NCBI GenBank assembly: GCA_963668315.1
Contig: OY764216.1
Span: 736,001-800,000, forward strand
Direction: 5' to 3'
Source of the DNA: Spirochaetia bacterium
Lineage (GTDB): Bacteria; Spirochaetota; Spirochaetia; DSM-2461
DNA length: 64,000 bases
The notes under the pieces are model-generated. The model was not told where the DNA came from, ran no database searches, and saw nothing but the letters and a program-made list of their open reading frames with translations. Made by a program: the position numbers and the translations under genes. The number at the start of each line of letters is the position of its first letter. Position 1 is the stretch's first letter. Shown here piece after piece: positions 4,157 through 64,000 of this stretch.

Positions 4157-6619
4157 TTACTGCGGATCGTAGCCGGCATTCCGTACGGCCGATTTAATCT
4201 CATCAAGGACTTTTTCCGTCTCTCCGTTCAGTTCCACGGTCAGTTCCTTTTTTTTCAGGTCCACCTCAGCCTTTTCCACCTCCGTGACGGCAAGAGCGGC
4301 CTTCTCCACGGCCATCTTACAGTGTCCGCATGACATTCCTTCTACCTTGATCGTTGCTTTCATTTTATTTTCCTCCATGGATTCGATCTGTTTATTTTTC
4401 TTACCGGATAATTTCCGTTTCATATTAAAACGCTTTAAGCTGAGTGAGTTGCTGACAACCGATACGGAGCTGAAAGCCATGGCCGCTCCCGCGATGATGG
4501 GATTCAAAAAACCCAGGGCGGCAAAGGGAATGCCCAAAGAATTATAGAAAAAAGCCCAGAACAGATTCTGTTTGATCTTTTTCATCGTCTCCCGGGAGAG
4601 ATAAATCGCTGTGGCTATTTCCCTCAGATCCCCCCTCATCAGGGTAATATCCGATGATTCCATGGCTATGTCCGAACCCTCCCCCATGGCTATTCCGATA
4701 TCCGCCGTGGCCAGGGCCGGAGAATCATTAACTCCGTCTCCCGTCATAGCGACGACATGTCCCTCATCCTGCAGCTTCCTCACTTCCTCCGCTTTTCCTT
4801 CGGGGAGGACTTCGGCCAGAACATTCTCTATCCCGGCTTCCTCGGCTATGGCCAGAGCGGTTCTTCGGTTATCCCCGGTTATCATATAGATATCCAGTCC
4901 CAGCTCCTTCAGCAGGGAGATCCCTTCCTTCGAATGCTCTTTGATACCGTCGGCAACGGCAAGCAGGGCGATAATATCCGTACGGTTTGCCATGATCACC
5001 ACCGTATGACCTTTGCTTTCCCACTCATTCTTTACGCCGATTATGCTGCCCAGAGAATAACGTTCATCCAGAGACTGGATATAATCCTCCGTTCCGATGA
5101 AGTACTGCTTTCCCTCGATAATACCGGAAATTCCCTTTCCCGGAAGGGAAGAAAAATCCTCAGTCGGCTTCAGCTGAATCTCCTTCTCCCGTGCTTTCGC
5201 GACAATGGCCTTACCCAGGGGATGTTCAGACTTCAGCTCCAGTGAAGCCGCCAGAGCCAGTAATTCATCTTCCCCCAGCGCTGCGTCGGAAGGATTCATT
5301 CCGATTATTTTCCTGACTTCCGGCTTACCCTGCGTGATGGTTCCTGTTTTATCCAGAATCAAGGCTGACAGCTTCCCCGCCTGCTGAAGTACCTCTCCGT
5401 TCTTTATAAGAATTCCCTTCTGGGCTCCCAATCCCGTTCCCACCATGATGGCCGTAGGCGTGGCTAACCCAAGGGCGCATGGACAGGCAATGACAAGAAC
5501 GGAAACGGCAGCGATCAGTCCGTGTGCGGGCGAACCGAGAGCAAGCCACCATATAAGAAAGGTCAACAGAGCGATAGCCAGAACAACGGGAACGAATACC
5601 GAGGCGACCTTGTCGGCCAGCTGCTGGATGGGCGCTTTGGAACCCTGAGCTTCTTCCACGATGGCGATTATCCGGGAAAGAACCGAGTCTTTCCCTACCC
5701 GTTCGGCTTCCATTCGCAACGACCCGTAGCTATTTATCGTTCCGCTTGTAACGGAGTCTCCCGGTTTTTTCTCGACGGGCATACTTTCGCCGGTGATCAT
5801 GCTTTCATCCACGGCGGAATTTCCTTCCAGAACGGTGCCGTCCACGGGAATTCGATCGCCCGGCCTGATCAGCAGTATATCGCGGGGGACGACGTCGCTG
5901 ATGGGTATCTCCACATCCTTTCCGTCCCTTTCCACCAGCGCCGTTTTCGGCTGAAGACCCATCAGTTTTTTTATCGCTTCCGATGTTTTCCCCTTGGCCC
6001 GGCTTTCAAAATACTTGCCCAGCAATATCAGGGTAATGATCAGAGAAGACGCCTCAAAGTAAAGCCCTGCGGACATGCCTGCTCCGGGAGTATGGAAAAA
6101 ACCATTGTAGATACTGTAGAAATAGGCCGCCGATGTACCCAGGGCGACAAGGACATCCATGCCGGGACTGCCCGCCCTGACAGATTTCCATCCGGCTTTA
6201 TAGAACCGGGCTCCCACAATAAACTGCACAGGTGTGGCAAGGACAAGCTGCAGCAGGGGATTATGAAGAAACATGAGGGCCTCAATTTTGAGAAGCCCGG
6301 CGAACATGGCCAGTAGCAGGGGAGCACTTAGGAGGGAGGAGATAATCAGTCTTATCTCGAGAGATCTGAGCTTTCCCTTCTCGGAATCAGCCTCCTCCCC
6401 GCCTTCAGCCGGCAGAGAAGCGCCGTATCCCGCATCGACGACACTCTGGATAATTTCCTCGATGCTCACTTTCTCCGGATCATAGCTGACTGTGGCCTTG
6501 TCGGTTGCCAGGTTCACGGCAGCCATATCAATCCCGCTCTTTTTTTTGATACCCTTTTCAACATGGGCGACACAGGATGCACATGTCATCCCCTTTATAT
6601 CAAGCTGTATAATTTCCAT
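4157..6619 (-). CDS. copA: Cu(I)-exporting P1B-type ATPase with N-terminal HMA and fused C-terminal CopZ-like HMA domain
   Basis: GMTCASC, TGES, CPCALGLA, DKTGT, SEHP, GDGVND, YN and MAFSS motifs; C-terminal GMSCGHC; AGGAGG RBS before ATG 6619. Confidence 0.93.
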   Translation of the reverse strand: MEIIQLDIKGMTCASCVAHVEKGIKKKSGIDMAAVNLATDKATVSYDPEKVSIEEIIQSVVDAGYGASLPAEGGEEADSEKGKLRSLEIRLIISSLLSAPLLLAMFAGLLKIEALMFLHNPLLQLVLATPVQFIVGARFYKAGWKSVRAGSPGMDVLVALGTSAAYFYSIYNGFFHTPGAGMSAGLYFEASSLIITLILLGKYFESRAKGKTSEAIKKLMGLQPKTALVERDGKDVEIPISDVVPRDILLIRPGDRIPVDGTVLEGNSAVDESMITGESMPVEKKPGDSVTSGTINSYGSLRMEAERVGKDSVLSRIIAIVEEAQGSKAPIQQLADKVASVFVPVVLAIALLTFLIWWLALGSPAHGLIAAVSVLVIACPCALGLATPTAIMVGTGLGAQKGILIKNGEVLQQAGKLSALILDKTGTITQGKPEVRKIIGMNPSDAALGEDELLALAASLELKSEHPLGKAIVAKAREKEIQLKPTEDFSSLPGKGISGIIEGKQYFIGTEDYIQSLDERYSLGSIIGVKNEWESKGHTVVIMANRTDIIALLAVADGIKEHSKEGISLLKELGLDIYMITGDNRRTALAIAEEAGIENVLAEVLPEGKAEEVRKLQDEGHVVAMTGDGVNDSPALATADIGIAMGEGSDIAMESSDITLMRGDLREIATAIYLSRETMKKIKQNLFWAFFYNSLGIPFAALGFLNPIIAGAAMAFSSVSVVSNSLSLKRFNMKRKLSGKKNKQIESMEENKMKATIKVEGMSCGHCKMAVEKAALAVTEVEKAEVDLKKKELTVELNGETEKVLDEIKSAVRNAGYDPQ

Positions 6620-6628
6620 CACAGCCTC

Positions 6629-6907
6629 CTATTTGATCATTTTTCTTATCGTCCTCGATAATTCGTCAATCACTTCCGTTTGACCGGCCTGAATCTGCTC
6701 GACGACACAGCTTCGCATATGAGCTTCCAGCAGCTGAGTCTTAACGCCGGCAATCGCCGATTCCACACTCATGAACTGATGCAGGATATCATCGCAGTAG
6801 ACATCTTCTTCAATCATCCTGGTGATACCGCGTATCTGCCCTTCGATCCGGTTCATCCGCTTCACCATCTCGGTTTTAGCTTCGTATGAATGGTGCGCTT
6901 TTCTCAT
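6629..6907 (-). CDS. csoR: CsoR-family metal-sensing repressor
   Basis: RMNRIEGQIRGI..YCDDIL..HMRSC (Cys/His/Cys ligands); directly upstream of copA. Confidence 0.9.
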   Translation of the reverse strand: MRKAHHSYEAKTEMVKRMNRIEGQIRGITRMIEEDVYCDDILHQFMSVESAIAGVKTQLLEAHMRSCVVEQIQAGQTEVIDELSRTIRKMIK

Positions 6908-7733: not shown

Positions 7734-8651
7734 ATGAATAAATATCTTTTCTGCCTGCTGATGCTCCCGGCCTGCTTATGGTCCGGGGAGCTTCAGTTCG
7801 GCGCCGACTCGGCTTTCTACCCTAAAGACAGGGGAAAGAGCCCGGAATTTCAGGTCTGGACCGGCTTCTCCGATTCACAGCCGATACTGAGAGGGGATTC
7901 CGCGTTAAGGGAAAATAACAATTTTGCCGTTCAGGGCAAGTTAAGCTTCTCCCCCGTCTCTCTGGGATCAGATCTGATCTGTCAGCTTACGCCCCTGGCC
8001 TTTCTGAAGCTGGAGCAGGGAATCCACCTGGGCACGGGATGGACTCTCGGGGAAGACATAATCGGCCTGGGACTGAACAAAGACGGATCGTCAGATCAAT
8101 CCATAGAATCCCTTAGCGGCGTTGTCTGCAAGACATGGCTCGGGGTGACGATTCAGTTTGACCTGGCGGCAGTCCTCCCCGACCCGGGCGAATTCAGCCA
8201 TCTGGTTTTTCAGTCCTCCTTCAGTACCTGCTTCCAGTATTACAGCGGAGCGGATAGGGATGAGCCCTGGAGATATCAGGCGGATGAGGGAGAAAATTTC
8301 AATGGATTTCTTGGTAAGAATCGAACTGTACTGGGATACGTCATTCCCCGCTCACCGATTGATTTCGCCGGATTTATTCTGGAGACGGAGGGATACCTCG
8401 GCTCTACGGCCTCCCTTAGCCGAATAGATGACAGCGGCTGGGGTTTAGATTTTGTTGAAGTGCGCCTGGGCCCTCTGGCCAACTGGCAGATCAGCGGCGG
8501 CCATTCACTCTCTTTTCTTGTCCAGTGGAAAAACAGCCGCGCCTATACCGCTGAATCGAAAGAGGAAGATTTTTTCATGAATAGAATATGCACAGGACAG
8601 GGACAGCTTTCTTTTGAGAGAATCGCCCTTTCCTATAAATATGTCTGGTAA
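7734..8651 (+). CDS. Exported hypothetical protein, probable outer-membrane beta-barrel
   Basis: Signal peptide, amphipathic beta-strand pattern, C-terminal RIALSYKYVW; AAGGAG RBS. Confidence 0.55.
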   Translation: MNKYLFCLLMLPACLWSGELQFGADSAFYPKDRGKSPEFQVWTGFSDSQPILRGDSALRENNNFAVQGKLSFSPVSLGSDLICQLTPLAFLKLEQGIHLGTGWTLGEDIIGLGLNKDGSSDQSIESLSGVVCKTWLGVTIQFDLAAVLPDPGEFSHLVFQSSFSTCFQYYSGADRDEPWRYQADEGENFNGFLGKNRTVLGYVIPRSPIDFAGFILETEGYLGSTASLSRIDDSGWGLDFVEVRLGPLANWQISGGHSLSFLVQWKNSRAYTAESKEEDFFMNRICTGQGQLSFERIALSYKYVW

Positions 8652-8661
8652 GGGGAGGACA

Positions 8662-9738
8662 ATGATGAAGAGGAACATGGTCAGATGCTGTCTGATATTA
8701 GCTGCGGGATTACTTTTATCCTGCTGTGTGACAAAAGAGGAGGAGTTAATGGAAACGGATAAATACCCATCCATAGAGCAGGAGATTTTCCGATTGGCCC
8801 AGACCGCGGCCAGCAGCCATAACAGTCAGCCCTGGCGTCTGGAAATCCGGGAAGAGGGAGGATATCGGGTTATAGCCGCGGAGGAACGCTGGCTCAGGGA
8901 AGTTGATCCCGAGAAAAGGGAGTTTCTTCTTTCCCTGGGGGCTTATCTCGAAAACCTGAAGATTGCCGCTGCAGCCTGCGGATACGAAGCTGACATGACG
9001 GTTCTCATGGAGAACAGGGATGACCGAATCGTCGCGGAATTTACTCTGCATCGGCAAGGGGGAAACATTGACGAAGAACAGGTCCGGCTTATGCGCAACG
9101 GTTCCATGAAAAAGGTGAAATACCGCCGGACCCTCCGGAAAGAGCGGGAATGGTCAGCCTTTGTTGAGGGTGAAAAGAACGTCCTCTGGATTGAAAGGGA
9201 CGATGAAAAATTCTCCTATCTAGCGGAGGGTACGGTCCAGGCGAACCGCCTGCAGGCGGAAAACGACAGCAAGCAGAGGGAACTGGCCGATTATATCTGC
9301 TTCAGTGAAGCGGACGAGGTGGCGGGCATCGGGATGACGCCGGCCATGCTGAACCTTCCCGCCCTTATGGTCCGCTCCTGGTACAAAAAGGCCTCTCCCG
9401 ATACGGTCATGTCTTCCTTCTTCCGCAGCGGCGCCGTCGGTAAGTCCCGCAAGCTCATGAGGAATTCGGCCGGAATCCTTCTTATAACAAGTGAGGAGAA
9501 TTCTCCCCGGGCGCTGCTTGCCTGCGGCGGTTTATTCCAGAAATTATATTGGGAAGGCAAAAAGAGAAACATCGAACTTCATACGGTTTCACAGATTCTG
9601 GAAGAATCCCCCCAGAAGGAAGATCTGGCTGCCTCCGGTATGGCGGATAAACCGATTCAGTTCCTGCTTCGTGTCGGGGAGACGGATGCGGTCAGCTCCG
9701 CCTCCCTGAGAGAGGCCTCTGCCCGCATTACAGATTAA
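8662..9738 (+). CDS. Acg-like nitroreductase-family protein with lipoprotein-like signal
   Basis: AASSHNSQPW, DPEKRE..LSLGAYLENL motifs; LLLSC lipobox; GGAGG RBS at 8654. Confidence 0.78.
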   Translation: MMKRNMVRCCLILAAGLLLSCCVTKEEELMETDKYPSIEQEIFRLAQTAASSHNSQPWRLEIREEGGYRVIAAEERWLREVDPEKREFLLSLGAYLENLKIAAAACGYEADMTVLMENRDDRIVAEFTLHRQGGNIDEEQVRLMRNGSMKKVKYRRTLRKEREWSAFVEGEKNVLWIERDDEKFSYLAEGTVQANRLQAENDSKQRELADYICFSEADEVAGIGMTPAMLNLPALMVRSWYKKASPDTVMSSFFRSGAVGKSRKLMRNSAGILLITSEENSPRALLACGGLFQKLYWEGKKRNIELHTVSQILEESPQKEDLAASGMADKPIQFLLRVGETDAVSSASLREASARITD

Positions 9739-10213
9739 ACTGCCAGTAGCCCACATCTATCCATTTTTCGAATTTGTAACCCACTCCTTCGAACTGGGCC
9801 ACTTTCTTAAAACCGAAGTGTTCATGCAGCTTCTGACTTTTTTCATTGGGGAGGGCGATACCGCCTATCATGGTCCGGTATCCCCTGCCCTTCAGTTCCT
9901 TTATCAGTTCGCCGTAAAGCTGACGCCCCCAGCCCTTACCCAGATGTTCCCGGGAAAGATATACGGTAGACTCAACGGAAAACCGGTAGGCACAGCGCCC
10001 CTTCCATTTACTGGCATAAGCGTAGCCTACGATTCGGCCCTCTTCTTCCATGACAAACCAGGGAAGGCCTTCTTCGGTCTTCTCTCTAATCCGCTCCGCC
10101 ATATCGGAGGCGCTCAGACTCTCTTCCTCGAACGTTACCGGCGTATTTTCAATATAGTAATTGTAAATACCCGCAATCTGTTCCGCATCATTGTCATTCG
10201 CCATTCTTATCAC
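9728..10213 (-). CDS. GNAT N-acetyltransferase, phosphinothricin/arsinothricin (ArsN1-like) type
   Basis: IYNYYIENTPVTFEE, GYAYASKWKGRCAY, GIALPNEKS..LHEHFGF, VGYKFEKWIDVGYWQ. Confidence 0.85.
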   Translation of the reverse strand: MIRMANDNDAEQIAGIYNYYIENTPVTFEEESLSASDMAERIREKTEEGLPWFVMEEEGRIVGYAYASKWKGRCAYRFSVESTVYLSREHLGKGWGRQLYGELIKELKGRGYRTMIGGIALPNEKSQKLHEHFGFKKVAQFEGVGYKFEKWIDVGYWQFNL

Positions 10214-10235
10214 TGAATTATCCTCCCGCGCTGCC

Positions 10236-10529
10236 TCAGCAGCATCCTTTATTATTTCCGCAGGAGCATCCGCATGACGGCTCTCCCCCCTTTAGAAATC
10301 CATTTATCACCGCTTCGGCGCAGCCCACGCCTTTATTCACGGCAAGTGCCGAAACAGGACAGTTCATCACACAGGCGCCGCATTCCATGCACGAATCTTT
10401 CCTGCTGATTCGCGTTTTTCCCTCTTCCATCACAAAAACATCCCGCGGGCATACATCCAGGCACATACCGCAGCCGATACATTTCTCACAGTCCATTGCA
10501 AGGGTGGCCACGTTCTTCAGATAAGTCAT
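10236..10529 (-). CDS. hgcB: Mercury methylation ferredoxin HgcB
   Basis: Two CxxCxxCxxxCP motifs incl. CMECGACVMNCP, GVGCA motif, Cys-rich tail ending CC; GGAGG RBS before ATG 10529; directly downstream of hgcA. Confidence 0.93.
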   Translation of the reverse strand: MTYLKNVATLAMDCEKCIGCGMCLDVCPRDVFVMEEGKTRISRKDSCMECGACVMNCPVSALAVNKGVGCAEAVINGFLKGGEPSCGCSCGNNKGCC

Positions 10530-11331
10530 AAGGTTCCTCCCGCCCTCAGGCAGATAACCGTCCCCGCCGCCAAAGCAAGAAGGGTAAGGCCGATCTGAAT
10601 GGGTATGGCCCATTTCATCTCTTTGACAACACCCGAATAGGAGGTAAAGGCAGAAGCAGGGGGGTTAGAAAACCTCCGGTAATCGCTCCCAGAAGAAGGG
10701 GGACCAGCAAGGAGAAATTCAGCTGGTTCCAGCCGGAACAGAATCCGTTCATGATGAGAACCAGCAGGGCGAAGGGCAGTAAAATCTTCCAGGACTGAAT
10801 AAGTTCCAGTGGGGTCAGAACCAGTCTGTCCCTCCAGGAAAAGGATTTTGTCCGCATTCGGGCCGTTTTCTTCATGCCCCCTGCCAGAAACTCCGGAATA
10901 TCCCTTGCTTCCACGGGACCGAAGATCACTCTGAAACCCGTTTCTTTTCTCACATCCCGGGCCGAGACTCCCGGAGCTCCCAGCTGGGGCAGAATCAAGA
11001 CCCTGTGATCAAGCCGGGAAGCAAGTCCCGTCATTTCTATGCGCCGGACCAGTTCGGCCGTTCCGAAAGTACCCTTTCCGGCGGCGCACCAGACATTAAT
11101 TCCCCCGGTATCCAGAACCAGAATGTGGCAGTCCAGCCCTACTAGCTCCCGGCGCAGAATATCAACCGTCAGTTTATAGTTTGCCGTGACAAAGACCGGA
11201 GAAACCCTTCCGGGATTGTTCATCCCGTATAATCCGGGTTCTACCCTATAATTTCCCCGGTTTATTCCCAGACGTACCTTAAGGGCTCCCCATATATCGG
11301 AAGTACTCCAGACCCCGTTCAATTCATTCAT
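10526..11331 (-). pseudogene. hgcA: Mercury methylation corrinoid protein HgcA with internal deletion and frameshift near 10648 (238 aa ORF 11331-10615 plus 40 aa C-terminal piece 10648-10526 in another frame)
   Basis: Cap-helix NVWCAAGK (11074-11097), TANYKLT, LPQLGAPG, FGPV motifs; C-terminal FTSYSGVVKEMKWAIPIQ in shifted frame, whose TGA overlaps the hgcB ATG. Confidence 0.88.
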
Positions 11332-11806
11332 GTTCCTCCCCTCTGCAGGCACAGCATCCGTTATTCTCGCCCCCTTCGGTGCGCATGGCTTCCACCAGTG
11401 CATGCAGATCGTAAGAAATGCGTTCCCTGATATCCTTCTCAAGGCCTTCAAAGATTCGTCCGAAGCTGTCCAGACTGGCTCGGTTTATCCTTTCCACGAT
11501 TTTTCTTCCCTCTTCCGTCAGCCCCAGGTTCTGACTCCTCCGGTCATGGGAACGGGATTCCCTCCGAACAAGACCCTTTTTCACAAGGGTATCTACGGTT
11601 CTGGAAAGAGATGCCTTATCCAGGCGCAGTTCATCATTCAGATTTGTGAGGGTCATATCGTCCTTGCCCTCCAGACAGAGAAGGATATGGCCCTGATTAA
11701 CAGTCACGCCGCTGCAGTAGGAGGAATCCTTAATTCGGCTGAGGACGACGCGTTCCATTCGGCGCATGGTATTCCGGAAATCAATTACATGTTCTATCTG
11801 ATTCAT
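11324..11806 (-). CDS. MarR-family regulator with Cys-rich C-terminus
   Basis: LDKASLSRTVDTLVKKGLVRR..DRR..LTEEG winged helix; GCCAC tail; stop overlaps hgcA start. Confidence 0.88.
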   Translation of the reverse strand: MNQIEHVIDFRNTMRRMERVVLSRIKDSSYCSGVTVNQGHILLCLEGKDDMTLTNLNDELRLDKASLSRTVDTLVKKGLVRRESRSHDRRSQNLGLTEEGRKIVERINRASLDSFGRIFEGLEKDIRERISYDLHALVEAMRTEGGENNGCCACRGEEHE

Positions 11807-11812
11807 AATTAA

Positions 11813-11841
11813 ATGTTATTATCAAATATTGATATTGTCAA
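11813..11841 (-). promoter_or_regulatory. sigma70 promoter of marR-hgcAB operon containing a candidate operator
   Basis: TTGACA (11841-11836)-17-TAACAT (11818-11813); TATCAA-ATA-TTGATA inverted repeat at 11820-11834 in the spacer. Confidence 0.7.
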
Positions 11842-57180: not shown

Positions 57181-59100
57181 ATGATGAGCACTATTATGGA
57201 TAATCAGGAAATAGAAGAGTTTAACGAAGAAGCCTATCTGAATATGGAGCTGTTACGGTTTACAACAGCGGGAAGCGTGGACGACGGTAAAAGTACCCTT
57301 ATCGGCCGGTTGCTTTATGATTCCAAGGCCATTTTTCAGGATCAGATGGAACAGTTGGAGCAGGCCAGCGCCTTACGCGGTGAAGAAGAAGTCAATCTGG
57401 CATTGTTAACAGACGGCTTACGGGCCGAAAGGGAGCAGGGTATTACCATAGACGTGGCTTACCGCTATTTCTCCACTCCTAAAAGAAAATTTATCATCGC
57501 CGACACTCCTGGTCACGAGCAATATACACGCAATATGGTGACAGGGGCCTCCACGGCTGATTTGGCAATCATATTGATTGATGCCCGTCTTGGCGTTCTG
57601 CCTCAGAGTCGACGCCATGGGATTATCGCCAGCCTTTTGGGAATTCCCCATGTGATCGTGGCGGTCAACAAGATGGATCTGGTGAATTACGATCGAAAAA
57701 CCTATGAGAAGATAGTTGAAGAATATCGTGAATTCAGTCAGAAGCTTAATATTCACGATATTACCTTTATTCCTATTTCCGCTCTCGTGGGAGATAACGT
57801 GGTGGATGCCGGTGATAATATGCCTTGGTATGACGGCCCGACCGTCATGTATCAGCTGGAGAACGCATCTATTTCGGCTGACCGGAATCTGGTGGATTTT
57901 CGTTTTCCCGTGCAGTATGTCCTGCGCCCCCATCTGAATTTTCGGGGATTTTCCGGACGTATTTCCAGCGGTTCCATTAAACCGGGTGAACCGGTAACGA
58001 TACTTCCTTCCATGAAGACTTCCACCGTAAAGGAGATTGTTACCTATGACGGTAACCGGGATGAAGCTTTTCAAGGGGAAAGCGTTACACTGACGTTGGA
58101 TGACGAGATCGATATCAGCCGGGGTGACATGATCGTCCGTAGTCATAACTTACCCGATGTAACCACTCGCTTCCAGGCGACTATCTGCTGGATGGATGAT
58201 GACCAGTCTCTGAGTTTAGCGACCGGTTACAATCTGCAATGCGGCAGCCGGATGGTCAAGGCATATGTCAGGACTCTTGATTATCGGCTGGATATCAATA
58301 CTTTGCATCGTCAGGATGCGGATAAGCTTTCTTTGAATGAGATAGGTCGTGTGGAAATTGAAACGGCCATGCCCTTGCCTCTGGATCCCTATGATCAGAA
58401 TCGGGAAACGGGAAGCTTTATATTGATTGATCCGGCATCTAATCAGACAGTGGCGGCCGGGATGGTACGAAAAGCCTTAAAAAATGCTCCGGCTCCTGAG
58501 CTGATGACCCAATCTTCAACGAATGTTCGCTGGGAGAAGCTTAATGTGACCCGGGAGAACAGAGAAGCCCGCCAGGGGCATAAGGCCCATTGTCTGTGGT
58601 TCACCGGCCTTTCCGGATCGGGTAAAAGTACTATCGCCAAGGAATTGGAAAAGAACCTCTTTGAAGAGGGTAAGCGGGTTTACGTTCTGGACGGGGATAA
58701 TATCCGCCATGGTTTGAACGGGGATCTGGGTTTTTCGGCTAATGACAGGATAGAGAATATCCGTCGAATAGGAGAAGTGGCCCGGCTCATGTACGATGCC
58801 GGATTTATTGTGCTTTGTTCCTTTATCTCGCCCATGAAGGCTATGAGGGACTTTGTGAAGGGATTGTTTCCAGCAGGAGCCTTTACCGAAGTCTATGTGA
58901 AGGCCGATTTGGATACCTGTAAATCCAGGGATCCGAAAGGATTGTATAAGAAGGCTTTGGCTGGGGAGATCCCCGATTTCACGGGTATAAGCAGTCCCTA
59001 TGAGGAACCGGAATCGGCGGAACTGGTTTTGGATACAATGGGGGAAATTATTGAAACAACAGCAATGAAGGCAATTAATTATATTAAACCATTACTATAG
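57181..59100 (+). CDS. cysNC: Fused sulfate adenylyltransferase subunit 1 / APS kinase
   Basis: GSVDDGKST, EREQGITID, DTPGH, NKMD; C-terminal WFTGLSGSGKST, LDGDNIR, RDPKGLY. Confidence 0.95.
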   Translation: MMSTIMDNQEIEEFNEEAYLNMELLRFTTAGSVDDGKSTLIGRLLYDSKAIFQDQMEQLEQASALRGEEEVNLALLTDGLRAEREQGITIDVAYRYFSTPKRKFIIADTPGHEQYTRNMVTGASTADLAIILIDARLGVLPQSRRHGIIASLLGIPHVIVAVNKMDLVNYDRKTYEKIVEEYREFSQKLNIHDITFIPISALVGDNVVDAGDNMPWYDGPTVMYQLENASISADRNLVDFRFPVQYVLRPHLNFRGFSGRISSGSIKPGEPVTILPSMKTSTVKEIVTYDGNRDEAFQGESVTLTLDDEIDISRGDMIVRSHNLPDVTTRFQATICWMDDDQSLSLATGYNLQCGSRMVKAYVRTLDYRLDINTLHRQDADKLSLNEIGRVEIETAMPLPLDPYDQNRETGSFILIDPASNQTVAAGMVRKALKNAPAPELMTQSSTNVRWEKLNVTRENREARQGHKAHCLWFTGLSGSGKSTIAKELEKNLFEEGKRVYVLDGDNIRHGLNGDLGFSANDRIENIRRIGEVARLMYDAGFIVLCSFISPMKAMRDFVKGLFPAGAFTEVYVKADLDTCKSRDPKGLYKKALAGEIPDFTGISSPYEEPESAELVLDTMGEIIETTAMKAINYIKPLL

Positions 59101-59111
59101 GAGATAGTTTC

Positions 59112-59912
59112 GTGAAATTCTTAATTTCATTTATGACAGATATTATAAAAAGTCGTTACTTAATATGGCAACTTACGAAAAGAGGGTTTTCTCAAAAATA
59201 TAAACGTTCAAAACTTGGTTTTTTATGGTCGATTATTGAGCCTTTGTTATTTATGCTAGTTCTGTATGTTGTTTTTGGTATAGGTTTACGCGGAGGTAGC
59301 AATATGAATATTCCATACATTTGTTATCTTATTACTGGATTAGCATCTATAAATTTTTTCACAGAAACTTTTATTAAAGGAACAGTTGCAGTATATGGAT
59401 ACTCATATCTATTAAAAAAAGTTACATTTCGAATGAGCATCTTACCAGTTGTAGTAGTATTGGTTGGTTTACTTGAACATTTGATATTTTTAATAATCGT
59501 GTCAGTAGTACTTTTTTTAAATCATGTATATATCAATATATATTGGATTCAGATATTTTATTATATGTTATCTCTTAGTTTTTTTCTTTTAGGGCTAACT
59601 TGGTTTACCTCGTCTGTTGGTGTTTTTTTTCCAGATTTACAACAAATAGTAAGTGTTATAAACAAAATGATTTTTTACTTTTCCCCTGTTTTTTGGACTA
59701 TTGATGTATTACCTATATCATTGCAAAAATACTTAATGTTTAATCCATTGTATTATATCATCTCGGGTTATAGAGATTCTTTTTTCTATAAAATACCCAT
59801 TGGAAGTAATATGAGTCAGCTAATATATTTTTGGGGGTGTACTTTTACCTCGCTTATTATTGGTGCATTTTTCTTTAAAAAATTACGTCCTCAATTTTCT
59901 GATTATATTTAG
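59112..59912 (+). CDS. wzm: ABC-2 polysaccharide export permease
   Basis: KYKRSKLGFLWSIIEP, FYFSPVFW, NPLYYII. Confidence 0.9.
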   Translation: MKFLISFMTDIIKSRYLIWQLTKRGFSQKYKRSKLGFLWSIIEPLLFMLVLYVVFGIGLRGGSNMNIPYICYLITGLASINFFTETFIKGTVAVYGYSYLLKKVTFRMSILPVVVVLVGLLEHLIFLIIVSVVLFLNHVYINIYWIQIFYYMLSLSFFLLGLTWFTSSVGVFFPDLQQIVSVINKMIFYFSPVFWTIDVLPISLQKYLMFNPLYYIISGYRDSFFYKIPIGSNMSQLIYFWGCTFTSLIIGAFFFKKLRPQFSDYI

Positions 59913-59920
59913 GATAAAAA

Positions 59921-60655
59921 ATGGATGATATAGTAATTAATTTAACAGATGTATCAAAGACATATTATCTTTATGACCGAAATTTTGTAGATCGTTTTAA
60001 AGATACATTTTTACCTGGAAAGAAAAAACGATATAGACAGTTCGATGCATTAAAAAACATTTCTCTTTCAGTAAATAGAGGAGAAATTCTTGGGATTATT
60101 GGTGGAAATGGTGCTGGTAAATCAACTTTATTAAAGATAATAAGTGGGATAACACAACCCACATCAGGAGACGTTAATGTAAGTGGGAGAATAATACCGC
60201 TTCTAGAATTAGGAGGTGGATTTAATCCAGAATATACCGGTCGCGAAAATATATATTTTTATTGTTCACTAATGGGCTTACATAAAGAAGAAATAGATCT
60301 TATATACGATGAAATCGTTGATTTTAGTGAAATAATAGATTTTATTGATGTTCCTTTGAAAAAATATTCTTCAGGTATGAAAGCACGTCTAGCATTTTCT
60401 GTATCTATAAATATTGATCCAGATATACTCATTCTAGATGAGGTTTTGGCTGTAGGAGATCAAAAGTTTCGAAAAAAATGCTTTTCCCGTATGGATCAAA
60501 TTTTTAAGTCAGGAAAAACAATTTTGTTTGTATCTCATGACGTAGCTAGCATTAAAAGGATTTGTACTAAAGCTGTATTATTAAATAAGGGATCATTAGT
60601 TGCAATAGACTCTACAGATTGTATTGTTAAAATGTATAATGAATTGCTTAAATAA
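59921..60655 (+). CDS. wzt: ABC polysaccharide export ATPase, no C-terminal carbohydrate-binding module
   Basis: GGNGAGKST, YSSGM, ILDEVLAVGD, VSHD; only 244 aa. Confidence 0.9.
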   Translation: MDDIVINLTDVSKTYYLYDRNFVDRFKDTFLPGKKKRYRQFDALKNISLSVNRGEILGIIGGNGAGKSTLLKIISGITQPTSGDVNVSGRIIPLLELGGGFNPEYTGRENIYFYCSLMGLHKEEIDLIYDEIVDFSEIIDFIDVPLKKYSSGMKARLAFSVSINIDPDILILDEVLAVGDQKFRKKCFSRMDQIFKSGKTILFVSHDVASIKRICTKAVLLNKGSLVAIDSTDCIVKMYNELLK

Positions 60656-60691
60656 TGGGTAATAATACTAAGGAATGAATAGGAGATAAAA

Positions 60692-63600
60692 ATGGATGCA
60701 CTACTTTCAATTATAATGCCTGTATATGGAACTGAATGTTTTTTAGAGAAAAGTATCAATAGTGTTATTGGGCAATCATATAAAAACATAGAATTAATAA
60801 TCGTAAATGATAAATCTCCTGGTGATGTTAGAAGTATAATTAAGCCATACCTTGATAACCATAATATCAAGTATATTGAAAATAATAAAAATCTCGGTTT
60901 ATTTCATACAAGGATTGCAGGTATAAAAGAGGCAAGAGGACAATATATATCTTTTCTTGATAGTGATGATTATGTATCAATTGATTATTATAGAGAGTTA
61001 TTAGAAAAAGCAATTAATTCAAATTATGATATTGTTGAATCAAGAATAGTTATGCAGTCTGAAAACGGAGAGAAGTTTATTCAAAATAATAATAACAATC
61101 TCTTTCCTGAATTGATAGGTAAGGATATACAAAAAAAATTCTTTCAACAAGAAGGTTTATTTTTTCATTGGCATGTAATCTGGAATAAAATATATAAAAG
61201 AGAATTGATTGAGCAGTCTTTACCAGTTCTTACTAAGCAGAAAGAACATTTGATTATGACAGAAGATGTTCTCTTTTCTTCGGTTTTTTTTAGTAATGCA
61301 AATTCTTATGCTTCAGTGGACAATGGATGTATTTTTTATTGTTTGCATGGAAATGCTTCTACTGGAAAAAATGCTGATTTTAGTAAGTTCAGCAAAAATC
61401 TTTCAGATATTCAATTGGTGTTTAGTTTTTTGTTAGAACAATTCTGTAATAGTGAATATAAGGGTAATATTAATAATTGGAAAGAACGATATTCACGTAT
61501 TTGGTGTGAACGAATAAAGCATGAAATTAATAAGTGTAGTGATAGAAATAAACTATTATCAAAATATTCGCTTTTTTTATCCGATAATACTCCAGTTAGG
61601 GGCGATGATCTTTATCATCATGCTGTCATTACAGATTGGGATAATCGATATGAACATATTTATGAACTCATTAAAAGGAATGAAGTTGAGTATGTCAGTT
61701 TTGATATATTTGATACTCTTTTAGTGAGAGACTTTTTGGATCCTTCTGATGTATTTGAATTAGTTGATCGTTTCTTTTCAACCATTTGTAGTAAACCTAA
61801 TCTTGTTAAATTTAGTAATATACGTATCGAGGCAGAATCTCTTTGTCGAGCAGAAGAAATTAAGAACAATCCTCTAATCGAAGATATTACTCTTGATGAT
61901 ATATATAATTATATTTTAAGGAATTATGAAATATCAGAAGACATAATTAATAAATTAAAAAAGAAAGAATTAGAAATAGAAAAAAATAACATTAGACAGA
62001 GAAAATCTGCTTTGAATTTGTTTAATGGTATTCAAAGTATGGGTAAAAAAATAATACTAATTTCTGATATGTATTTATCTAAACAATTTATAGCAGATTT
62101 ACTACATAATTCAGGATATGAAAACTGGGAGAAATTATATCTGTCTTCTGATATAAAACTCACAAAACATACTGGAAATTTATTTAAACATGTTTGTGAA
62201 GACTTAAATATTAATCCATACAAAATTTTTCATATTGGTGATAATTGGTTTTCTGACAAAACAAAAGCTACAGAGATGGGACTTCAATCTTATTATTATC
62301 CAAAAATAAGGGATCTATTATCAACAGAACTTAATGGAATTTATTCTGGTAGATTTTTTGATCCATATAATAATATAAATAATAATTCTTCCTGGTTAGA
62401 TAATCACTATGTACAACACAATTTTGGTATGAAGTGTCTAATTGCTAATACAGCAAATTATTTTTATGATAAACCATATAAATCTATTAACTATAATTCT
62501 GATTTTAATGTGGACCCTTTTTTTATAGGTCATTATTCCTTAGGTATAACTACATTATTAATGTGTAGATGGATTAAAAAATACTGTGAGAATAATAATA
62601 AAAAAAGGATTGTTTTTATTGGTAGAGATGGATATTTAATAAAAGAAATATTTGACAAATATAATGAGTCAGAAAACATCAAAACGGGTTATATTTATGC
62701 TTCAAGGAGATCTCTTTTACCAGCGCTTTTCTCAGAAAAAGTTAACATTTATGGTTTATCTGATTTTTTAAATTATCAGGAACATTCGCCGCGTAGTATT
62801 TTAGAATTATTTAATGTAATCACAATTGATAATTTAGATTATAGAGAGCTTAAGAAAGACAAGATAATAATAGATAAAAGATTTGATAGAAAAGAAGGAT
62901 TTCTTTTCTTTATGAAATATTTTTATAATAAATTACTATCAAAGGATAAACTTAGTGAATATAAACTTAATTTAAAAGAATATTTAATTAATAATAATGT
63001 TGATGAAGATGCAATAACATTTGATCTTGGGTATTCAGGAAGAATTCAATCTATTATATGTCATATTTTGGAAAAGCCAATCGATACTCTTTTTATGCAT
63101 ACCAATAATGAAACAAGTTCTATTTTGTCAAAAAGATTTAAGTTTAAAGTTAAATGTTTTTATGATTTTGTACCGCAAATAAGTGGGCTCATTCGGGAAC
63201 AGCTATATTCTGAATCATCTCCTTCGTGTATTGGATATATAAGAAATGCAAATAACAAGGTTATTCCTGTTTTTGAAGATTATACAGAGTTCAACCTTGT
63301 TGATTCACTAAATATTAATAAAATACATTATGGTGCTATTCGTTTCGTTGATTCTTTTCTAAATGATCATAGAGATCTATTAGAGTTATTTAATATTTCA
63401 AATTATGAAGCTTCAATTCCTTTAGAGTATTATATTCATGAAAGCAAAGAAATTGATAGATCATTATTTATTCATTCTATATCAGATGATTTTGTGCATG
63501 CTGGAAGAGCAGATTATAATATTCTTGAATGGTGGAACTGGGAATTGCAAAAAAACAGAGGAGTTATTGGAAATAAAAAATCAGAGTCAGTAAGAATAGC

Positions 63601-63715
63601 AGAACATGAACAGTTATTTGAGAATTATAACATTATTAAGAGAACAATATACTTCATTCTATTTGAACAAAAATTGTTTATTCAAAAATTAAAGAAGAGA
63701 ATTTTGAAAAAGTGA
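60692..63715 (+). CDS. Multidomain GT2 + HAD phosphatase + phosphoribosyltransferase-like protein (probable glycan polymerase adding ribofuranose)
   Basis: GT2 (SIIMPVY, FLDSDD, TED); HAD (SFDIFDTLL, ISDMY, HIGDNWFSD); FIGRDG and FDLGYSGRIQ. Confidence 0.75.
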   Translation: MDALLSIIMPVYGTECFLEKSINSVIGQSYKNIELIIVNDKSPGDVRSIIKPYLDNHNIKYIENNKNLGLFHTRIAGIKEARGQYISFLDSDDYVSIDYYRELLEKAINSNYDIVESRIVMQSENGEKFIQNNNNNLFPELIGKDIQKKFFQQEGLFFHWHVIWNKIYKRELIEQSLPVLTKQKEHLIMTEDVLFSSVFFSNANSYASVDNGCIFYCLHGNASTGKNADFSKFSKNLSDIQLVFSFLLEQFCNSEYKGNINNWKERYSRIWCERIKHEINKCSDRNKLLSKYSLFLSDNTPVRGDDLYHHAVITDWDNRYEHIYELIKRNEVEYVSFDIFDTLLVRDFLDPSDVFELVDRFFSTICSKPNLVKFSNIRIEAESLCRAEEIKNNPLIEDITLDDIYNYILRNYEISEDIINKLKKKELEIEKNNIRQRKSALNLFNGIQSMGKKIILISDMYLSKQFIADLLHNSGYENWEKLYLSSDIKLTKHTGNLFKHVCEDLNINPYKIFHIGDNWFSDKTKATEMGLQSYYYPKIRDLLSTELNGIYSGRFFDPYNNINNNSSWLDNHYVQHNFGMKCLIANTANYFYDKPYKSINYNSDFNVDPFFIGHYSLGITTLLMCRWIKKYCENNNKKRIVFIGRDGYLIKEIFDKYNESENIKTGYIYASRRSLLPALFSEKVNIYGLSDFLNYQEHSPRSILELFNVITIDNLDYRELKKDKIIIDKRFDRKEGFLFFMKYFYNKLLSKDKLSEYKLNLKEYLINNNVDEDAITFDLGYSGRIQSIICHILEKPIDTLFMHTNNETSSILSKRFKFKVKCFYDFVPQISGLIREQLYSESSPSCIGYIRNANNKVIPVFEDYTEFNLVDSLNINKIHYGAIRFVDSFLNDHRDLLELFNISNYEASIPLEYYIHESKEIDRSLFIHSISDDFVHAGRADYNILEWWNWELQKNRGVIGNKKSESVRIAEHEQLFENYNIIKRTIYFILFEQKLFIQKLKKRILKK

Positions 63716-64000
63716 ATTACTACACTCACTATAAAAAATGGCATGATCATACTAATTCTTCATATGTAAAATGGATGAGTTATAAGTATAAAAAATTATT
63801 GAAAAATCATCTACCAGCAGATAAAGATTCAAGAATTCTTGAAGTTGGTTGTGCAAATGGAATTTCTCTATTGGCTTTAAGTGAATTAGGCTACAAGAAT
63901 TTAGATGCAGTAGAAATAAGTAAGGATATGTATAATATTGCATGCCAGTTTTCATCAAAAGTAAAAAATATCGATATTATTGACTATGTAAATACATGTA
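63712..64000 (+). CDS. Class I SAM-dependent methyltransferase, runs off the right edge
   Basis: Not in ORF track; GTG overlapping upstream stop, open to window end; RILEVGCANG motif I, AVEIS. Confidence 0.8.
   Translation, partial: MNYYTHYKKWHDHTNSSYVKWMSYKYKKLLKNHLPADKDSRILEVGCANGISLLALSELGYKNLDAVEISKDMYNIACQFSSKVKNIDIIDYVNTC

Follow-up and report, generated by a model that had tools for sequence, protein, structure and literature searches.

A four-gene unit of a spirochaete in which a broken hgcA lies between a MarR_ars-type repressor gene and an intact arsN1-type acetyltransferase gene

The stretch of DNA analysed here, 64,000 nucleotides of a Spirochaetia bacterium (contig OY764216.1, positions 736,001 to 800,000; hereafter the window), carries a four-gene unit, marR-hgcA-hgcB-GNAT, on its minus strand and divergent from rpsD, in which the mercury-methylation genes hgcAB are placed between a regulator gene and an N-acetyltransferase gene. 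The first gene, marR (11806-11324), encodes a MarR_ars-type winged-helix repressor of 160 aa. It is followed by a truncated hgcA (11331-10615; 238 aa), whose product retains the corrinoid domain with its NVWCAAGK motif and two predicted transmembrane (TM) helices before a frameshift and a stop, by an intact hgcB (10529-10236) for a 97-aa 2[4Fe-4S] ferredoxin with CMECGAC and a terminal CC, and by an intact gene (10213-9728) for a 161-aa N-acetyltransferase of the arsN1 family B/PAT type (GNAT). The common orientation of the four genes, reported in a first-pass annotation of the window, was confirmed. Their tight spacing, claimed in the same place, does not extend to hgcA and hgcB, which are 85 nt apart because the hgcA open reading frame (ORF) stops early; the hgcA start overlaps the marR stop by 8 nt and arsN1 starts 22 nt downstream of hgcB.

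A motif scan placed a sigma70-type promoter, TTGACA-17-TAACAT (11841-11813, minus strand), ahead of marR, and the same layout is found in the congener G002; the scan returned seven promoter-like sites in the region against 4.8 in shuffled sequence, so that taken alone it carries little weight. The -10 element ends 6 nt upstream of the marR ATG and no Shine-Dalgarno sequence was seen, from which the marR message is likely to be leaderless. Within the promoter spacer, among alternating ATCAA/TTGAT half-sites, lies an operator-like palindrome, TATCAA-N3-TTGATA (11820-11834), which occurs once in the window against an expectation of 0.01 and is kept in two congeners, G002 and G003; it is likely the binding site of the MarR protein. 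Both promoter and palindrome are thus where the first-pass annotation had put them. A genome scan for a wider palindrome regulon yielded one other perfect copy, inside a long ORF, and eight copies with one mismatch, below the 11 of a reversed-pattern control. Terminator-like matches inside the operon genes were taken as chance, and a 14-nt likeness between the 3' ends of marR and hgcB was judged a by-product, as both encode N-x-G-C-C.

The first-pass annotation had taken HgcA as intact, and the break by deletion had been missed. The ORF corresponds to positions 8-237 of the 325 in NCBIfam profile NF040863, and positions 288-318 are encoded just downstream in another frame, in an orphan 3' remnant (10526-10657, minus strand) that holds the last TM helix, overlaps the hgcB start by 4 nt and has its stop on the hgcB ATG. 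The two parts meet in a 9-nt stretch (10649-10657, minus strand) that encodes LLP when read in the frame of the upstream part and ASA in that of the downstream part, and we infer a microhomology deletion at this joint. Compared with the closest relative, ~169 nt comprising helices 3-4 are absent and helix 5 is out of frame. The distance from the cap-helix motif to the last-helix motif is 461 nt here and 207-223 codons in 82 of the 84 relatives in which both motifs could be located; from motif to stop there are 160 residues, against at least 235 in all complete relatives but one. Hydropathy gave two TM helices here versus four, five and four in three full-length relatives, so the window protein falls short of the five (at least four) in-frame C-terminal TM helices required of a functional HgcA. 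In a sample that favours intact genes, hgcA was full length at 181 of the 182 complete loci examined; the sole other short hgcA, in a Nitrospirota metagenome-assembled genome (L078, 4926-5909), has an end that looks frameshifted.

The break would escape the usual tests. All the motifs reported earlier are present, namely NVWCAAGK in HgcA and CMECGAC with a CC tail in HgcB; NVWCAAGK stands at HgcA residue 79 with the ligand Cys in place and agrees with the cap-helix consensus N(V/I)WC(A/S)(A/G/S)GK. The broken gene scores 304.6 bits against the NF040863 cut-off of 275 and also passes the high-stringency motif test as outlined in PMC10087281, and would therefore be counted as a methylator in surveys, which calls for caution. 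HgcB is intact, passing the NF040864 cut-off of 99 bits with 118.4 and possessing two 4Fe-4S motifs, C(M/I)ECGA and the terminal Cys pair next to hgcA.

One sample, which may be the source of the window itself, has public contigs in three of its runs (depth 93-348) that are identical over the whole stretch, and in a second sample of the same study a 494-nt contig spans the deletion joint without a gap. With gap-free contigs in two samples of one study, we rejected an assembly artefact as the cause of the break. Read-through of the frameshift was likewise rejected as a rescue because ~170 nt are absent, and no second, intact hgcA was found elsewhere in the genome. In four runs (X1-X4), sequences from other organisms have 875-885 letters between hgcA and hgcB anchor motifs, against 665-673 in the window, which suggests that full-length hgcAB occur in co-occurring microbes of the same samples.

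In the account given in PMC7305189, mutants without the HgcA TM domain do not methylate mercury, and HgcB is modelled against HgcA helices 4 and 5; that modelled contact is missing in frame from the window HgcA. A search by sequence comparison found no solved HgcA structure. Given the internal deletion and frameshift, hgcA is likely a pseudogene and the unit likely no longer makes methylmercury.

The closest relative of the four proteins is encoded on a public contig of 1,523,970 bases, on which the gene order is not visible. Its MarR (88% identity), HgcB (94%) and ArsN1 (96%) are full length. Its HgcA, at 89% identity in an alignment that covers 70% of the query, has Phe for the cobalt-ligand Cys in the cap helix; helices 1-2 are absent, 3-4 are retained and the protein stops early. 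Judged from its sequence, this HgcA is broken by a different lesion from that in the window. Three other genomes of the genus (completeness 96, 80 and 90%) gave no hgcA match and no hgcB above cut-off. In G002 the corresponding site beside rpsD holds marR and an intact arsN1, which overlap and have no hgcAB between them. In G003 it holds a marR with a frameshift and a stub of arsN1, again without hgcAB, and in G001 neither marR nor arsN1 is present there; the 23-nt marR/arsN1 overlap is common to G002 and G003. At the G002 junction a 17-nt stretch matches the hgcA start at 15 of 17 positions, a likeness reached in 1 of 150 null draws. ArsN1 passes its family cut-off in three genomes. Elsewhere in the family, three members (G014, G020 and G045) have marR-hgcA and one (G024) has hgcA without this MarR. 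Directly after the decayed marR-arsN1 of G003 (L184:1602-2475) are fragments of what is presumably a glutamate dehydrogenase gene.

The regulator has a MarR winged-helix fold (PF01047, 52 bits; predicted model with mean pLDDT 84), in which Cys31 is at the end of helix 1 and residues 147-160 are of low confidence. It has Cys31-Ser32 where most relatives have Cys-Cys, and the tail cysteines Cys151/152/154. The GCCAC motif, said earlier to end the protein, is in fact found at residues 150-154 in a protein of 160, and of the cysteines it is Cys31 that matters more. The 88%-identical MarR of the closest relative keeps both cysteines of the pair; a Clostridium felsineum ars-operon MarR has the same Cys-Ser. 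Sufficient upstream DNA was available for 46 hgcA-linked homologues; 33 of them have Cys-Cys, 44 at least one Cys at the pair site and 44 a tail Cys. The window MarR groups with ars-operon MarRs, and its G002 counterpart heads arsN1 directly. Plasmid records matching the closest relative's MarR number 39; in four of the five examined the next gene is arsN1, arsN2 or a GNAT gene within an ars cluster, and in the fifth it is the gene of an unnamed membrane protein. On these likenesses the window MarR is of the arsenite-sensing MarR_ars type, the sensing itself being attributed by analogy.

A TACAA/TTGTA dyad is present in 37 of the 46 marR-hgcA promoters, in none of 119 hgcA loci without this MarR and in 54 of 2300 shuffles. 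The window's own ATCAA type occurs in 5 of the 46; it is also the type of a Niallia marR-arsN1 promoter that is nearly identical to the one in the window, and it stands upstream of the hgcA-linked MarRs at L014 and L015. Operator type is uninformative on the direction of events. At five loci (L027, L061, L113, L130 and L142) the same type of MarR is encoded downstream of hgcB, not upstream of hgcA, and several of these proteins are without tail cysteines. Two homologues without an adjoining hgcA head other genes, one for a S-adenosylmethionine methyltransferase with weak ArsM/UbiE likeness (L228:614-1279) and one for a C-GCAxxG-C-C family protein (L223:1904-2434).

The acetyltransferase was described earlier as ArsN1-like, and this holds: it reaches 216.4 bits against the NCBIfam ArsN1 family B cut-off of 210, and its best match among solved structures is ArsN1 of P. 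putida (139.5 bits; PAT 117.1). Of the seven arsinothricin-site residues named in PMC6465285, four are identical (Phe33, Arg77, Ala124 and Val158), Ile31 is replaced by Val and Arg75 by Lys, both found also in PAT entry 5T7D, of Streptomyces type, and Ala76 by Gly, which puts the site between the ArsN1 and PAT patterns. The PAT of Streptomyces viridochromogenes, as that article reports, also acetylates arsinothricin, and for this reason the enzyme likely protects against arsinothricin. Among annotated arsN1 neighbours the locus has a MarR_ars-type gene but no arsR, arsC or acr3; acr3 is encoded ~670 kb away, next to a gene of the ArsR family, and a search of the genome for arsM at E 1e-15 found none. 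Contig G000:C1 of the genome has six long matches to ArsP_1-family permeases (e.g. 2023151-2037173), two of them adjoining ArsR-family genes.

The distribution of the arrangement was followed in two collections. The first comprised 164 hgcA loci from genomes and metagenomes (four from relatives, the best 80 of 592 and the best 80 of 588 matches; one without the motif, and a few in both sets). The MarR gene is directly upstream of hgcA at 33 of 163 loci, and no GNAT gene was found near hgcA at any of the 163 other loci, 125 of which have at least 1 kb of downstream sequence. The second collection consisted of 350 other genomes of the phylum, 73 of them with an hgcA match (one below cut-off) and 34 with a match to a MarR profile built from hgcA-linked MarRs. 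There hgcA follows MarR at 26 of the 29 loci opened and, by coordinates, at two more, giving at least 28 of the 73 hgcA genomes. ArsN1b-like genes are found in eight genomes, three of which also have hgcA, on other contigs, and none of the 350 genomes has an ArsN1b match on an hgcA-bearing contig. The marR-hgcAB arrangement is widespread, then, and hgcAB-arsN1 is local. The first-pass annotation had suggested a survey of marR-hgcA-hgcB-GNAT synteny; this was not found beyond the closest relative in either collection, and the congeners keep marR-arsN1 without hgcAB. Its proposal that a thiol-bearing MarR takes the place of ArsR before hgcAB fared better, the regulator being of an arsenic-linked type that is common in the phylum.

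In a FastTree phylogeny of 114 rows, built from the corrinoid domain only, the window HgcA groups with HgcAs of the same family (support 94), three of the four having MarR upstream; L016, which among the genome loci encodes the nearest full-length HgcA, has none. Named neighbours in this tree and in that of MarR indicate Spirochaetota, in agreement with the first-pass annotation. The MarR tree kept 51 of 78 rows, leaving out six outgroup rows, one long branch and near-duplicates. We think it fairly probable that marR-hgcAB was inherited in the family, that arsN1 was added behind it in the genus, and that hgcAB are now being lost repeatedly while marR-arsN1 persists longer. Loss of hgcAB appears favoured over their insertion by the place of the HgcA among those of its own family, by the existence of two alleles broken in different ways and by the match to the hgcA start in G002.

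Taken together, the reading that we consider reasonably probable is that of a four-gene, MarR_ars-headed unit in which hgcA is broken and a palindrome-bound repressor, predicted to be released by arsenic, switches on ArsN1. A MarR dimer on the dyads of the spacer and the -10 element would repress its own message, from which all four genes would be co-transcribed; As(III) or MAs(III), bound at Cys31 and the tail cysteines as the analogy with MarR_ars suggests, would release it and switch on the intact ArsN1-type acetyltransferase. The operon is likely arsenite-inducible and autoregulated, its working output is probably ArsN1, and HgcB would be an orphan. The locus in this form is likely a snapshot of a loss under way, in which an arsenic-linked switch is shedding its mercury-methylation genes, hgcAB.

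A number of observations weigh against this reading or parts of it. The corrinoid domain of HgcA and HgcB show no general erosion or relaxed selection, on account of which the breaks look recent, and the methylation-dead mutants published in PMC7305189 had, as described there, lost the whole TM domain, the two-helix form not being among them. The closest relative's alleles are known as protein only, and their breaks could include assembly errors. The cysteines of the window MarR (Cys31 and tail Cys151/152/154, with Ser at the second pair position) were compared with the AdMarR_ars triad (36, 37, 157) by pattern, and Ser at that same second position weakened AdMarR_ars according to bioRxiv 2021.08.12.456183. 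Near the eight ArsN1b-like genes elsewhere in the phylum there is no MarR_ars-type gene within 1.5 kb, which means that the ArsN1b label alone does not imply arsenic. As to history, the match to the hgcA start in G002 was a post hoc find in a genome only 80% complete, with none in G003 (42 of 150 null draws); the MarR clade that holds the genus has support of 83/60; a grouping with the MarRs of ars operons is not rejected in an approximately unbiased (AU) test (p-AU 0.34); the MarR tree leaves the direction of events unsettled; and the marR/arsN1 overlap common to G002 and G003 is on the side of insertion.

To the reverse history we give a limited chance: marR-arsN1 would be old in the genus, and hgcAB, inserted between them in one lineage, would have decayed as never useful. 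The overlap shared by G002 and G003, the Niallia-like promoter, the AU result and the absence of an upstream MarR at L016 all speak for it; the grouping of the window HgcA with same-family HgcAs that mostly have MarR, the ATCAA-type operators before hgcA-linked MarRs at L014 and L015 and the possible hgcA-start scar in G002 speak for loss instead. Doubtful to a similar degree is the view that what the MarR detects is thiol oxidation, or a soft thiophile other than arsenic (Hg(II), MeHg, Cu(I) or Sb(III)), arsN1 being co-regulated by association only. Cys-rich sites are not metal-specific, the regulator is tied in the phylum to hgcA (26 of the 29 loci opened) and not to ars genes, and acr3 is elsewhere, beside an ArsR-family gene, in a genome without arsM at the threshold used. 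The ars and phoN1/arsN1 phenotypes of P. putida, moreover, are reported in PMC11637737 as independent despite co-regulation. However, the MarR profile was built from hgcA-linked MarRs, which biases the count, the closest plasmid relatives sit in ars clusters, and an unrelated ArsR2 before hgcAB responds to arsenic as outlined in bioRxiv 2022.10.17.512643.

Less likely again is a decay of the whole cassette, repressor included, in which a change of Cys32 to Ser blunted sensing and arsN1 is merely the last gene not yet hit. The Cys-Cys of the closest relative against Cys-Ser in the window, the decayed marR and arsN1 of G003 and the empty site of G001 fit such a course, but ArsN1 is the best conserved (96%) of the three full-length genes compared between the close relatives and scores above the family cut-off in three genomes, the repressor retains three cysteines in its tail, and the operator palindrome has no mismatch. 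Very improbable, in our judgement, is a working four-gene metalloid-defence operon in which the short HgcA acts with HgcB, perhaps on arsenic species, and was co-selected with ArsN1. An intact cap-helix motif and corrinoid domain, a fully conserved HgcB and the presence of all four genes on the closest relative's contig would agree with it. Yet the two short HgcA forms share no design, because in the relative it is other helices that are gone, along with the cobalt-ligand Cys; full-length genes at all but one of the complete hgcA loci (in that sample favouring intact genes), the lack of GNAT near any of the 163 other loci and the congeners without hgcAB also stand against it.

We therefore return to the arsenic-released repressor with a broken hgcA behind it. 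The first-pass annotation had proposed that a working corrinoid methyltransferase is co-induced with ArsN1, which is unsupported, hgcA being broken here and in the closest relative, and that HgcAB and ArsN1 share a role in metalloid defence, which is also unsupported because hgcA is likely a pseudogene and the two are paired only in a single lineage, from which hgcAB are disappearing. The locus does speak for a control of the arsenic type over hgcAB in general, but is no demonstration that HgcAB has a part of its own in arsenic defence. We offer only tentatively, as something rather unlikely in its full form, that hgcAB acquired in MarR_ars another arsenic sensor, recruited independently of the first and heading at least 38% of the hgcA loci in the spirochaete phylum, and that in this genus the switch passed from hgcAB to a gene for resistance to an organoarsenical antibiotic, arsN1 having joined the unit behind hgcAB before hgcA was inactivated independently in sister lineages. 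Were this true, hgcAB and arsN1 would answer the same arsenic cue and possibly the same threat, and ArsN1 would have made HgcAB dispensable; the evolution of the locus would then be direct evidence of what HgcAB natively does.

Three features of the surrounding window may be recorded. A gene for an Acg-family FMN oxidoreductase (8614-9738, plus strand; 172.9 bits, below the cut-off of 199) converges on arsN1 and overlaps its stop by 11 nt, and does not adjoin arsN1 in G002. About 3 kb from the operon (4157-6907, minus strand) a CsoR/RicR-type copper repressor gene is followed by that of a P-type ATPase of the CopA type, which has HMA domains at both its N and C termini; the two form a copper efflux pair of the ordinary kind. 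At ~59000-64000 the GC content drops to 26-29% from ~50% elsewhere, which suggests foreign DNA.

Each component has a counterpart among known systems. The window HgcA and HgcB resemble the canonical proteins of NF040863 and NF040864 in corrinoid domain, NVWCAAGK, HgcB motifs and scores above cut-off; they differ in that helices 3-4 are missing from the window HgcA and helix 5 is out of frame, and PMC7305189 presents a TM domain of five helices as a defining part of HgcA. Loss of hgc genes has been described as widespread on the evidence of trees (PMC10083202), a source in whose available portion the word 'pseudogene' is absent. ArsN1 of P. putida KT2440 (PDB 5JTF, 5WPH and 6M7G; PMC6465285) is the best PDB match of the acetyltransferase and shares four of seven site residues; the window arsN1 differs from it in three site residues and in not belonging to an arsRBC operon. 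Co-regulation of ars and arsN1, as PMC11637737 summarises it, need not mean common function.

AdMarR_ars of Achromobacter deleyi As-55, according to Yu et al. (bioRxiv 2021.08.12.456183), needs Cys36, Cys37 and Cys157 and leaves DNA on As(III) or Sb(III), and the targets named in the available text for its subfamily are arsV, arsP and arsN, not hgcAB. The window repressor shares with that subfamily the MarR fold, a Cys site at the end of helix 1, C-terminal cysteines, an autoregulatory layout and a position upstream of arsN; it differs in having hgcAB between repressor and arsN1 and Ser as the second residue of the pair. The unit likewise recalls arsR2-hgcAB of Pseudodesulfovibrio mercurii ND132, where a Cys-bearing, arsenic-tied regulator is directly upstream of hgcAB, but the regulator is of the ArsR/SmtB family there and of the MarR family here, and the ND132 hgcA is intact. 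Gionfriddo et al. (bioRxiv 2022.10.17.512643) measured the As/SAH response of the ArsR2-controlled hgcAB; the available portion describes no arsN1 at that locus, and without hgcAB the summary gives no significant loss of As resistance, the abstract noting an As(V) difference.

In the literature searched, with subscription journals mostly outside it, we found no paper linking MarR_ars or arsN1 to hgcAB. Regulators directly before hgcAB have nevertheless been seen, as in the window: a MarR-family gene in Dethiobacter alkaliphilus and Geobacter daltonii, called not ars-associated in PMC10349881, and an unnamed regulator upstream of hgcA in 112 genomes (PMC7438021), which may be this MarR. A MarR of the arsenic type does stand before hgcAB, is widespread there and can be tested, its sensing being assigned by analogy; found directly ahead of hgcA in at least 28 of the 73 hgcA genomes of the phylum, with a defined operator, it gives arsenic another possible way, beside the ArsR2 of ND132, to induce the genes for methylmercury formation.

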